Below are positions 39,001 to 45,000 of a stretch of DNA of 64,000 nucleotides, piece after piece. The stretch's first letter is position 1; every line of letters begins with the position of its first letter. Where the stretch lies: assembly GCF_024298765.1 (NCBI RefSeq), contig NZ_CP101210.1. One strand, given 5' to 3'. This DNA is from Escherichia coli. Its GTDB lineage: Bacteria; Pseudomonadota; Gammaproteobacteria; Enterobacterales; Enterobacteriaceae. The position numbers were made by a program.

Positions 39001-42000
39001 ATATCGACTACATCTGCGACTTTATTTTTGACGACGGGCGTCTTGAGAACATCTATTTGATAGATAAAAAGAATCTCATGCGCAATAAAGTGCAGATTAT
39101 CCAGCAGTTTGAACAGGCAGGCTCTCATGCTAACCGTTATGACGTCACGATCCTGGTTAATGGTTTACCGCTGGTGCAAATCGAACTAAAAAAACGCGGG
39201 GTGGCGATTCGTGAGGCTTTCAACCAGATACATCGTTACAGTAAAGAGAGTTTTAACAGCGAAAATTCCCTGTTTAAGTATCTGCAACTGTTTGTCATTT
39301 CTAACGGCACCGATACCCGTTACTTTGCCAACACCACAAAGCGCGATAAAAACAGTTTTGACTTCACCATGAACTGGGCGAAATCAGACAACACGCTGAT
39401 TAAAGACCTCAAAGACTTTACCGCTACCTTTTTCCAGAAACATACTCTGCTTAATGTTCTGGTGAACTACAGCGTTTTTGACAGCAGTCAGACGCTACTA
39501 GTGATGCGACCGTACCAGATTGCTGCCACCGAGCGCATTCTGTGGAAAATTAAGAGCTCCTTTACAGCGAAGAACTGGTCAAAACCGGAAAGCGGTGGGT
39601 ATATCTGGCACACTACCGGTTCTGGTAAAACCCTCACCAGCTTTAAAGCCGCGCGTCTGGCAACAGAGCTGGACTTTATTGATAAAGTCTTCTTCGTGGT
39701 CGACAGGAAAGACCTCGATTACCAGACCATGAAGGAATATCAGCGTTTTTCGCCAGACAGCGTCAACGGCTCGGAAAATACCGCAGGCCTTAAACGAAAT
39801 CTGGATAAGGACGATAACAAAATTATCGTCACTACTATTCAGAAACTCAATAACCTGATGAAAGCAGAAAGCGACCTGCCTGTATATAATCAGCAAGTGG
39901 TGTTTATATTTGATGAATGCCACCGCAGCCAGTTTGGAGAAGCGCAGAAAAACCTGAAGAAGAAATTCAAACGCTATTATCAGTTTGGTTTTACCGGCAC
40001 CCCTATTTTCCCGGAAAACGCCTTAGGCTCAGAAACAACCGCCAGCGTATTTGGTCGTGAATTGCATTCGTATGTAATTACCGATGCGATTCGTGACGAA
40101 AAAGTGCTCAAATTCAAGGTGGACTACAACGATGTGCGACCACAGTTTAAGTCTTTAGAGACAGAAACTGACGAGAAAAAACTAAGTGCGGCTGAAAATC
40201 AGCAGGCGTTTCTTCATCCCATGCGTATTCAGGAAATCACGCAATATATTCTGAATAATTTCCGCCAGAAAACCCACCGTACTTTCCCTGGCTCCAAAGG
40301 TTTTAATGCCATGCTGGCAGTAAGCAGCGTGGATGCCGCGAAAGCCTATTACGCGACGTTTAAACGGTTACAAGAGGAAGCCGCTAATAAATCTACTACC
40401 TGTAAACCACTGCGTGTTGCGACAATCTTCTCCTTTGCCGCTAATGAAGAACAAAATGCGATTGGTGAAATATCCGATGAAACTTTTGATACCAGCGCAA
40501 TGGACAGCAGTGCTAAAGAGTTTCTTGACGCTGCAATTCGTGAGTATAACAGCTATTTTAAAACTAACTTCAGCACCGACAGTAAGGGTTTTCAGAACTA
40601 CTATCGTGATTTAGCCCAACGGGTTAAAAATCAGGATATCGATCTGTTAATTGTCGTGGGGATGTTTTTAACCGGTTTCGATGCTCCAACATTGAACACG
40701 CTATTCGTCGATAAAAACTTGCGTTTTCACGGCCTGATGCAGGCATTTTCCCGCACCAACCGTATTTATGATGCAACTAAAACCTTCGGTAATATCGTCA
40801 CTTTCCGCGATCTGGAACGCTCAACCATCGATGCCATAACGCTGTTTGGTGACAAAAACACCAAAAATGTAGTGTTAGAAAAGAGTTATGCAGAGTATAT
40901 GGAAGGCTTTACTGATGCTGCTACTGGTGAAGCTAAGCGCGGCTTTATGGCAGTAGTTGCAGAACTGGAACAACGGTTCCCTGACCCTGCCAGTATTGAA
41001 AGTGAAAAAGAGAAGAAAGACTTCGTTAAACTGTTTGGTGAATACCTGCGTGCCGAGAACATCCTGCAAAACTATGATGAATTTGCCACGCTGAAAGCCC
41101 TGCAACAAATCGATCTTAGCGATCCTGTTGCAGTAGAAAAATTCAAAGCAGAACATTATGTGGATGATGAAAAGCTCGCTGAATTGCAAACAATTCGTCT
41201 CCCTGCTGATCGCAAGATTCAGGATTATCGTTCTGCCTATAACGATATTCGCGACTGGCAGCGCCGTGAGAAAGAAGCTGAGAAAAAAGAGAAATCAACC
41301 ACTGACTGGGATGACGTAGTTTTTGAGGTCGATTTGCTGAAATCTCAGGAAATAAACCTGGATTATATCCTTGGTCTGATTTTCGAGCACAACAGACAAA
41401 ACAAAGGTAAGAGCGAAATGATCGAAGAGGTCAAACGCTTAATTCGTTCAAGCCTGGGGAACCGTGCTAAAGAGGGCCTGGTGGTCGATTTTATTCAGCA
41501 AACGAACCTGGATGATTTACCGGACAAAGCCAGCATCATTGACGCATTCTTTACGTTTGCTCAACGCGAACAGCAACGTGAAGCAGAAGCCTTGATCAAA
41601 GAAGAAAATCTCAATGAAGAGGCGGCGAAACGCTATATTCGCACATCTTTAAAACGCGAATACGCCACCGAAAATGGCACGGAATTAAACGAGACACTGC
41701 CCAGACTCAGTCCTTTAAATCCGCAATATAAAACGAAAAAACAGACTGTTTTTCAAAAAATTAGCGCATTTATTGAAAAATTTAAGGGGGTGGGTGGAAA
41801 GATTTAGGGAAGGTGCGAATAAGCAGGTCATTTCTTCCCAAGCTGACTCGCTGATTAAAATTTCGCGGATCTGGGCCGATTTTTTTCCCGCAAACACATC
41901 GAATCGGCCTATTTAGGCTATTTTTTCCACCATTTCTGGCGTTATTTCCGGTTTTTACTGAGATCTCTCCCACTGACGTATCATTTGGTCCACCCGAAAC

Positions 42001-45000
42001 AGGTTGGCCAGGGTGAATAACATCGCCAGTTGGTTATCGTTTTTCAGCAGCCCCTTGTATCTGGCTTTCACGAAGCCGAACTGCCGCTTGATGATGCGAA
42101 ACGGGTGCTCTACCTTGGCACGGATGCTGGCTTTCATGTATTCGATGTTGATGGCCGTTTTGTTCTTGCGCGGATGCTGCTTCAAGGTTTTTACCTTGCC
42201 GGGACGCTCGGCGATCAGCCAGTCCACATCCACCTCGGCCAGCTCCTCGCGCTGTGGCGCTCCTTGGTAGCCGGCATCGGCTGAGACAAATTGCTCCTCT
42301 CCATGAAGCAGATTACCCAGCTGATTGAGGTCATGCTCGTTGGCCGCGGTGGTGACCAGGCTGTGGGTCAGGCCACTCTTGGCATCGACACCAATGTGGG
42401 CCTTCATGCCAAAGTGCCACTGATTGCCTTTCTTGGTCTGATGCATCTCCGGATCGCGTTGCTGCTCTTTGTTCTTGGTAGAGCTGGGTGCCTCAATGAT
42501 GGTGGCATCCACCAAAGTGCCTTGGGTCATCATGACGCCTGCTTCGGCCAGCCAGCGATTGATGGTCTTGAACAATTGACGGGCCAGTTGATGCTGCTCG
42601 AGCAGGTGGCGGAAATTCATGATGGTGGTGCGATCCGGCAGGGCGCTATCCAGGGATAATCGGGCAAACAGGCGCATGGAGGCGATTTCGTACAGGGCAT
42701 CTTCCATGGCACCGTCGCTCAGGTTGTACCAATGCTGCATGCAGTGAATACGCAGCATGGTCTCCAGCGGATAGGGCCGTCGGCCATTGCCCGCCTTGGG
42801 ATAAAACGGCTCGATGACAGCGGTCATATTCTGCCATGGCAGAATCTGCTCCATGCGGGAGAGGAAAATCTCTTTTCGGGTCTGACGGCGCTTAGTGCTG
42901 AATTCACTATCGGCGAAGGTGAGTTGATGGCTCATGATGTCCCTCTGGGATGCGCTCCGGATGAATATGATGATCTCATATCAGGAACTTGTTCGCACCT
43001 TCCCAAGAGAACGCAACAGCGCACTTGCTTTGCCACAGTTGAATTTTGTGCCGTAACGATGTGCAAGCATGTAAGCATAAGGAGTCAAGGTATAGCGTGT
43101 TACTTAGTTACTCGGATTAACAATCCCAACGTACAGAGCGGCGGATTTACAGAGTCAGCGCAGTCCCTGCTCCGGCAGTCAGTGGCAGGCGGCGTACTGA
43201 AGCAAACCATTATCGATACCGGCATCGGCGATACCATCGGCATGCTGATGTCACACGGCAATATTTCTCCCTACATCATGGCGTGGTTGATAACCGTGCT
43301 GATCCGTCTGGCAACGGGTCAGGGCGTGGTCTCAGCCATGACGGCGGCGGGGATTATTAGCGCAGCAATCCTCGACCCGGCAACCGGTCAACTGGTGGGC
43401 GTCGACCCGGCGTTGCTGGTGCTGGCAACAGCGGCTGGCTCCAACACGCTGACCCATATCAACGATGCTTCGTTCTGGCTGTTCAAAGGCTACTTTGATC
43501 TGTCGGTGAAGGATACGCTGAAAACCTGGGGTCTGCTGGAGCTGGTAAACTCCGTGGTTGGCCTGATAATCGTGTTGATCATCAGCATGATTGCATAACG
43601 TTGATACCGCTCTGGCCCACAGCGCCAGAGCGGTTTTCCATCCTGCCTCAACAATCCTCAATAATCAGATATACCGCCTTCACCGGACCATGCACCCCAA
43701 CCACCTTGATAAGCTCAATATCCGCCGTCGAGCTGGGTCCACTGATGATATTAATGCACGATGGCATACGCTCACCGGCCTGTGCTTTCTGATGCAGTTT
43801 TTCTGCCAGCTGCGCCACGCGCGGCAGGATGGTGCTTTTACGCAGCACGAAAATAGAGGACTCCGGCAACAGGCTCAGGGAGCGCCCGCGCTCCGGTGCG
43901 GAAAACAGCACCACGCCGCCGGACTCGGTCAGGCCATATTCGGCATACACCACGCCGACTTTCGCCTGCTCGGCCTGGGTAATATTTTCGCTACCACGCG
44001 CCGGATCCCAGACCACGGCGTTGCATTCCTGCTGCAAGCGTTCGGTGATGCCCAGCTCCACCAGCCGGCTGTCGCCGCTCAGCACCACCGGCTGCTGACC
44101 CAATTCTTCGCACAGGCGCAGTGCCGCGTCTGCGGCCTGGTCCTCGCTGGTCAGTTCGCAGCGGGCCAGCATCACTTCGCTGGCAAACTGGATAAACGCA
44201 GAGCAGCGCTGCTCGGGGCTAAGCTCGGTCAGGCGCTCGTTGGCATAGTTGTTAACCGGTGCGGCATCCGCTTGCGGTTCGAAGCGCAGCGGGCGACCCA
44301 GCGCCTGGGCGATGGTGTTTAAAAACGCGGTACGGTTATCCATTCTTTTTCTCCTGCGCCTGATGTTTCTTAAACCAGCTGCGGAAGCTCTCGCCGTCAG
44401 CATCAGGCAGATCGCGCGCCTCCATCCAGTCACCAATCGCGCCAACCTTGAGCGGGGTTTTGCCGCCATTGAGAAACCAGCTCGCCGCATGCGCGCCCGC
44501 CATCATCCCGACTTTCCACAGCCCCGGATGGCTATTGGCATAGGCGAACATCTTGATCGCCCGTCGCTCGGCTTTCGGCGTAATGCCCTCCTCGGCCATC
44601 ACCCGGCGATGACGCAGGATCAGTTTTGACAACGGAATACGCACCGGGCAGACGCTGTCACAAGCCGTGCACAAAGAACAGGCGTACGGCAGGTCTTTAA
44701 AATCTTTATAGCCGCCGAGCAGCGGAGAAATCACCGCGCCGATAGGGCCGGGATAGATAGAGCCATAGCCGTGCCCGCCGATGTGGCGGTACGCCGGACA
44801 GGTGTTCATACAGGCTCCGCAGCGGATGCAGCGCAGCACATCGCGAAACTCTGAGCCCAGCACCTGCGAGCGACCGTTATCGACAATCACCAGATGGAAC
44901 TCTTCCGGTCCGTCAACGTTGTCCGCCTCACGCGGGCCGGTCAGCCAGGTGTTGTAGCCCGTCAGACGTGCGCCCACGGCGCTGCGCGCCAGCATGGTAA

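Follow-up and report, generated by a model that had tools for sequence, protein, structure and literature searches.

The 64,000-nucleotide stretch of Escherichia coli contig NZ_CP101210.1 analyzed here (the window; all positions count along its whole length) carries an insertion sequence (IS) of the IS5 family that directly follows the stop codon of the type I restriction gene hsdR and precedes an accessory module of lactate genes, with flanks on its two sides that do not match. Our results make it quite probable that this joint was made by homologous recombination between IS copies within the island array anchored at the thrW tRNA gene. Joints that IS recombination makes between accessory modules are textbook cases, and this one, at the thrW hotspot, is built from known elements and a known cargo cluster; there is no new mechanism or element type to report, and the chromosome backbone is not broken at this place. 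What is mildly new is the likely Citrobacter origin of the core of the module and the apparently repeated recombination across the boundary between IS5 and ISKpn26. These findings matter for annotation and for the reconstruction of island history, as an IS with mismatched flanks marks here an accessory-module joint and not a backbone break, the genes labelled ykgGFE in such islands are a second copy, of likely Citrobacter origin, that travels with dld and lctP, and IS5 isoforms as diverged as these (~91% identity) can still recombine, shuffling defence and metabolic modules at the thrW hotspot.

The element, its immediate flanks and the gene to its left are given below; genome counts, here and throughout, refer to the 5426 complete E. 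coli genomes that were surveyed.

41808-43003, minus strand: complete ISKpn26-like element of the IS5 family, 1196 bp, with 16-nt terminal inverted repeats and a transposase gene
41804-41807, no strand: left flank TTAG, a canonical YTAR half-site; hsdR-TTAG/IS junction in 207 of 5426 complete genomes
43004-43007, no strand: right flank CAAG, the first bases of the 181-bp spacer 43004-43184
38691-41807, plus strand: hsdR, 1038 aa, intact

The terminal inverted repeats, GGAAGGTGCGAATAAG and CTTGTTCGCACCTTCC, are 16 nt each, and the transposase gene between them (41955-42935, minus strand) is intact and encodes a 326-aa protein of the single DDE type that matches the full NCBIfam profile NF033581 (IS5 family) with 366.8 bits, the cut-off being 140 bits. 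A first-pass annotation of this DNA had called the element a complete IS5. The element is indeed complete, but on its sequence we assign it to an ISKpn26-type isoform rather than to IS5 proper: it has 91.3% nucleotide identity to the IS5A of strain K-12, from which 109 sites tell it apart, 320 residues of its transposase are identical to those of K-12 InsH (InsH1), and in all related genomes the Prokaryotic Genome Annotation Pipeline (PGAP) gives it the name 'ISKpn26 family'.

As the first-pass annotation had noticed, no 4-bp direct repeat surrounds the window copy, which has TTAG on its left, the last three of these bases (41805-41807) being the TAG stop codon of hsdR, and CAAG on its right. 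The YTAR target motif of IS5 was derived from 220 new insertions, in a study that also documents the 4-bp duplication for IS5 (PMC5009759), and ISKpn26 has been described as a 1196-bp IS5-family element that generates 4-bp duplications (PMC8023600). In its length, its 16-nt inverted repeats, its one 326-aa transposase and a TTAG that agrees with YTAR, the window copy resembles ISKpn26 and IS5, whereas it differs from them in having no 4-bp duplication and a right flank, CAAG, that departs from the target motif. The missing duplication reflects the history of this copy and not the type of element. A 63-aa 'hypothetical protein' that PGAP places across the left junction in related genomes (WP_306417990.1, window 41782-41973, minus strand) has a reading frame that starts in the IS and runs, in antisense, into the 3' end of hsdR; it was probably created by the junction as an artefact of annotation.

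That the element did not simply insert next to hsdR, as had been proposed, is supported by the empty site found in strains MB06102 and 7-58 72A. There, hsdR ends in GATTTAG and continues with CAGTAACAAAAGG, so that CAGTAAC follows TTAG, while the right flank of the window reads AGAACGCAACAGC; the two flanks of the window copy are not contiguous in the empty site, where CAGTAACAAAAGG and not AGAACGCAAC is found beyond hsdR. A simple insertion would read TTAG/IS/TTAG-CAGTAAC, and a synthetic query for this state, composed of the hsdR end, the IS, TTAG and the downstream DNA of MB06102, was matched in none of the 5426 genomes.

The two halves of the junction have, in fact, separate distributions. 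The left half, hsdR-TTAG/IS, has at least four different right partners in the 207 genomes that carry it: the CAAG end of the lactate module in 34; CTAA followed by hsdM' of a second type I system in 25 (Ecol_244, K_EC180, NT1N25 and others); CTAA followed by a 5.4-kb cluster of the dimethyl sulfoxide (DMSO) reductase family (dms) in EC17CM7; and a TTAG located inside ISEc8 in TUM18780. We considered the last of these as the original simple insertion, given its TTAG on both sides, and rejected it: the second TTAG is part of ISEc8, 37-40 nt in, and compared to 7-58 72A the locus has a deletion of 438 bp. The right half, IS/CAAG-spacer, occurs in 85 of the 86 genomes that carry the spacer and has at least six left partners, namely the hsdR TTAG, the dms CTAA, a type I R/DUF4268 context with TTAG in G47-1, an MBOAT context with CTAA in 67-1, an appA-etk context with TTAG in G3/10, CX21 and 2022CK-00450, and the mmuP flank in CP056566.1. 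AR_0369 has one truncated lactate-linked IS copy, which adjoins phage-like genes. Both half-junctions come together in 34 genomes, and each is also found independently of the other with other partners, in keeping with the earlier suggestion that the IS is a rearrangement joint between two segments. The right border of the module mirrors the left, as it consists of an IS1 whose inner flank is constant and whose outer flank varies, with no 9-bp duplication.

Copies of the element at sibling junctions are chimeric. Based on the 109 distinguishing sites, the lactate-linked IS of CP056566.1 begins as IS5-type and changes to ISKpn26-type at about position 830, while the lactate-linked copies in the appA-etk context make the same switch around position 200; a plasmid IS copy shows the reciprocal pattern, and the hsdR-linked IS of NT1N25 opens with about 70 nt of ISKpn26-type sequence before turning IS5-type. 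With switch points that differ between CP056566.1 and the appA-etk copies, crossing over inside the IS probably happened independently two or more times at lactate-linked junctions. A genome with two copies is also available: EC17CM7 has two complete IS copies in direct orientation, with outer flanks TTAG and CAAG as in the window and inner flanks that are both CTAA, and between these ISKpn26-like copies (10001-17767 of the extracted locus) lies the 5.4-kb DMSO/selenate-reductase-family cluster with dmsD. Such bracketing is the pattern expected if a circle made of an IS and its cargo had integrated into a resident IS.

The window itself keeps a trace of a partner copy, 10.6 kb downstream of the element.

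53581-53789, minus strand: remnant of a second ISKpn26-like copy, 209 bp, corresponding to element positions 843-1051, 100% identical and in direct orientation
53790-54641, plus strand: hsdM' pseudogene of a second type I system, 5'-truncated and fused to the IS remnant
52250-53580, minus strand: IS2, 1331 bp, abutting the IS remnant, with flanks GAGAT and CCAGG and no 5-bp duplication

IS2 thus borders the remnant on its left and the truncated hsdM' is fused to it on its right, whereas in the Ecol_244-type genomes a full hsdM' follows a complete IS, as IS/CTAA-hsdM'. The partner copy that the first-pass annotation had called for is accordingly present both as this 209-bp remnant and as the full second copy of EC17CM7; an inversion, which it had also entertained, was rejected because both are in direct orientation. 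We also looked for a simple insertion of the second copy (IS-b, below) at the CTAA upstream of hsdM' and rejected it, as the 3 genomes examined out of the 25 with the IS/CTAA-hsdM' junction were all hsdR-linked recombinants; what did turn up was the uninterrupted hsdM' locus, which reads ATCTTA/CTAAGATAATTGG in CRE1540.

In the account that we favor, the left end of the window IS, together with TTAG, would come from an ISKpn26-like copy located directly after the hsdR stop of a CP4-type island integrated at thrW, and its right end, together with CAAG, from another copy that would form the permanent left border of the lactate module. A crossover between the two copies would fuse the modules and leave one IS with two unrelated half-sites; it could have taken place through integration of an IS-bearing circle, through a double crossover via the IS5-family element and IS1, or through deletion between direct copies. 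The remnant of a second direct copy, which in the window lies beside hsdM' just where it would be expected, fits, together with the other arrangements, an ancestor with two copies, IS-a and IS-b, in the form hsdR/IS-a/CAAG-lactate-IS1-.../IS-b/CTAA-hsdM', from which the Ecol_244 type could have been generated by recombination between IS-a and IS-b, and the window type by decay of IS-b. The independent half-junctions, the chimeric IS at sibling junctions, the two-copy intermediate and the remnant are all there in the genomes; that the IS of the window itself arose by such a crossover, and in which order the events took place, is what we infer from them.

Homologous recombination between IS5 copies is common in E. 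coli: in mutation-accumulation lines, 52 of the 98 recombination events that involved IS were of this type (PMC5009759). The case described here resembles the 'portable regions of homology' of Lee et al. 2016 (PMC5009759) in the one IS with two half-sites, the two-copy intermediate, the remnant and the chimeras. In those laboratory lines, however, deletions occurred between identical nearby copies, whereas here accessory modules are joined and the IS5/ISKpn26 boundary (~91%) is crossed.

When a mosaic of single-nucleotide polymorphisms was sought in the window IS, one informative marker was obtained, at its left end, and it speaks for such a crossover: a G at position 99 that is shared by all seven ISKpn26-type hsdR-linked copies examined and by none of the five examined copies with another left flank. 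Other observations weigh against a crossover in the window. The right-end marker, at position 1088, also occurs in copies that are not linked to the lactate module, and the window IS is without a diagnostic mosaic, because both of its parents would be ISKpn26-type. It could also be that the window-type arrangement is ancestral to some of the other hsdR-IS arrangements. Furthermore, the CAAG of the IS/CAAG junction does not conform to YTAR, and no CAAG/IS/CAAG copy was seen among the genomes.

Alternatively, the joint might be the work of the transposase. The lactate-linked IS would in that case have attacked the TTAG at the hsdR stop by replicative, cointegrate-type or intramolecular transposition, with its right junction remaining fixed, and the window type would have founded the hsdR-IS junction. 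The left flanks of lactate-linked IS copies are nearly all YTAR (TTAG, CTAA), as if the IS end had chosen them, the simple-insertion state at hsdR is absent from the survey, and local hopping of IS5 has been reported (PMC5009759). The same YTAR half-sites would, however, be left by resident copies recruited through homologous recombination, and the chimeric IS5/ISKpn26 elements at sibling junctions need crossovers inside the IS, which end-mediated transposition does not provide; the hsdR-IS junction is, moreover, present in 173 genomes in which the lactate module does not directly follow that IS. On balance we regard this route as unlikely, and recombination between IS copies as the better explanation.

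The second module at the joint runs from the IS5-family element through a 181-bp spacer, a truncated gntP (ΔgntP), lutCBA, dld and lctP to IS1.

43004-43184, no strand: spacer, 181 bp, with CAAG at its start, joined to the IS in 85 of the 86 genomes carrying it
43185-43598, plus strand: 3' fragment of the gntP permease gene, residues 311-447, matching positions 311-446 of the 447 of the GntP profile
43648-44343, minus strand: lutC (ykgG-like)
44336-45763, minus strand: lutB (ykgF-like)
45774-46493, minus strand: lutA (ykgE-like)
46568-48313, minus strand: dld
48701-50254, plus strand: lctP, L-lactate permease
50457-51224, no strand: IS1, right border of the lactate module, with a constant inner flank (..GACGCCTTTTCC) and an outer flank that varies between genomes

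The truncated GntP-type permease and the ykgG/F/E-like genes had been placed to the right of the IS by the first-pass annotation, and they are there. The lutCBA genes resemble the K-12 ykgEFG operon in orthologous function and in gene order (lutABC family), and their ykgG/F/E-like names, together with a chromosomal neighborhood shared with ecp and eaeH, had suggested that an IS5-mediated event shifted the backbone ykgEFG next to the island and broke the synteny. We find this highly improbable. Window 43647-46515 is 83% identical to K-12 ykgEFG, compared to ~96-97% for the ecp/eaeH backbone of the window and ~97-100% for the true backbone, and the genes are found in a thrW island, linked to dld, lctP and the gntP fragment, instead of between rclR and ykgH. 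In relatives such as APEC O2-211 and 2020CK-00188, the canonical ykgE-F-G is still in its place between rclR and ykgH/betA, in K-12 order. More than 150 plasmids, from Klebsiella, Escherichia, Raoultella and other genera, carry a version of the module with 97% identity, and it has a counterpart on a Citrobacter chromosome; for pFec10, a plasmid-borne cluster with lctP, dld and a second set of ykgEFG is already on record (PMC7984374). On these comparisons, the ykgGFE-like genes of the window are taken to be a second, accessory set, horizontally acquired and not displaced backbone.

The cluster on pFec10 and the Klebsiella plasmids has the same gene set as the window, with 97% nucleotide identity from position 43217 onward; it differs in that the break in its permease lies 32 bp deeper in the gene, with higBA ahead of it, where the window variant has the 181-bp spacer and the IS5-family element. 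The gntP truncations of the two variants are therefore separate events. Nor did the window IS cut the permease, as had been implied earlier, since the break lies 181 bp from the IS end and the DNA in between (43004-43184) is unrelated. For the source of this spacer, local BLAST and a distant search of a plasmid collection gave only self-type matches and one weak 75-nt match.

As for the source of the permease and lut genes, the gntP fragment has 84% nucleotide identity to E. coli gntP, and all of its 137 amino acids are identical to residues 311-447 of the GntP of Citrobacter portucalensis. A scan of species-representative genomes with the 30-mer of the terminator between the permease and lutC gave no matches, and one with a conserved lutB/lutC 25-mer placed the closest chromosomal relatives in Citrobacter. 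Over window 43185-46638, C. portucalensis A60 reaches 97.1% identity, and it has the gene order uxuB-uxuA-gntP(447 aa)-lutCBA-lctP (positions 1708-11083 of the extracted locus); dld is absent from that position in A60, and the lctP region is more diverged from C. portucalensis (89.7%). Because of the 97.1% identity to A60 and the 137/137 match of GntP, the gntP-lutCBA core is likely to be a captured piece of a chromosome of the Citrobacter freundii complex. The missing 5' two-thirds of gntP remained in the donor, so that the lost part of the permease, whose whereabouts the first-pass annotation had left to be found, is located in the intact chromosomal gntP of Citrobacter. The dld gene must have joined the mobile lactate module later than this core.

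An error of assembly, with contigs misjoined across a repeated IS, had been proposed as well, and IS copies are indeed classic points of misassembly; CP056566.1 might itself be an assembly oddity. The 4.2-kb stretch 40300-44500 (hsdR, IS, permease fragment and lutC) is, however, unbroken in 34 of the 5426 genomes, independently assembled, at 98.5-99.9% identity, and the hosts, countries and chromosomal contexts of these genomes differ, which leaves very little probability for a misjoin. The idea that a simple insertion took place and that its right duplication later mutated from TTAG to CAAG, two of whose four bases (A and G) agree, has next to nothing to recommend it, since the DNA past these 4 bp (AGAACGCAACAGC) is unrelated to that of the empty site (CAGTAACAAAAGG) in MB06102 and 7-58 72A.

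With recombination between IS copies as the preferred explanation of the joint, the lactate module may be compared to a composite transposon, which it resembles in that its cargo is bracketed by IS with constant inner junctions. It differs, however, in having an IS5-family element on the left and an IS1 on the right, two different families, and in the lack of a duplication around the unit, the outer flanks being TTAG and AATGGTGGT. Movement of the module thus appears to go by homology and not by paired transposon ends. Whether this 10-kb unit is a recurrently mobilized cassette, bounded by two IS families, with a core captured from Citrobacter, and whose transfer among plasmids and at least six chromosomal contexts in E. 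coli depends solely on its homology to the IS5 and IS1 copies already in place, is a proposal that we advance only tentatively, and with some doubt.

A circular intermediate of the lactate unit is possible, and CP056566.1, which has no replicon, would be one. This record (pRHBSTW-00386_2) is a 13.4-kb circle with 8 annotated features, no replication genes being among them, and it contains the chimeric IS5/ISKpn26 element, the lactate module, IS1 and afuB'-fbpC-mmuM-mmuP. The IS end that adjoins the mmuP flank (..AACGCCTCC/) is the opposite of the one found there in K-12, and homologous recombination alone cannot yield that arrangement. CP056566.1 may be an excised circle or an assembly oddity.

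The joint lies within an island array whose other features are as follows.

24140-24185, minus strand: partial thrW, 46 nt, 3' part of tRNA-Thr, an att-type repeat between the vat island and the CP4-type island
26505-27824, plus strand: tyrosine recombinase/integrase, start of the CP4-type island (transferred from the PGAP annotation of 2020CK-00188; protein WP_000144688.1)
35790-37346, plus strand: hsdM, type I restriction-modification
37343-38569, plus strand: hsdS, type I restriction-modification

Window 1-24185 shares 99.99% identity with APEC O2-211; it holds fdeC/eaeH, ykgR, ykgMO, ecpR-E, ykgJ and yagU, followed by the vat island, and identity to this backbone and vat island ends inside the thrW gene, at the partial copy 24140-24185. 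The thrW at the equivalent site of APEC O2-211 is intact, and no complete tRNA gene was found in the window. The integrase and the partial tRNA repeat at the border identify a CP4-type island anchored at thrW, whose genes after the integrase are cbtA/cbeA, an antirestriction gene, Ag43, a GTPase gene and hsdMSR. All window DNA to the right of 24140-24185 is thrW-anchored accessory DNA, and the IS junction lies 17.6 kb inside this array, away from any backbone border. The same island, at 99.96% identity, and the same junction are present in 2020CK-00188.

Further along the island, the IS1 at 50457-51224 is flanked by ..CGCCTTTTCC and AATGGTGGT, with no 9-bp duplication; recombination or deletion has produced several of the IS junctions found here. 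The part of the island that follows the lactate module is pieced together from defence genes: window 53790-58968 holds the remnants of the second type I restriction-modification system and two DUF262 genes, next to which relatives have the anti-phage gene hhe.

Outside of the window, the IS5A copy in the CP4-6 region of K-12 (NC_000913.3 273955-275149) is likewise without a target duplication, reading TTAT/IS5/GGAG. The breakpoint that borders this copy (..CTCATAACGCCTCC/) occurs without an IS in G47-1 (18580-18600 of the extracted locus), where the DNA upstream of mmuP runs straight on to the mhpT side.

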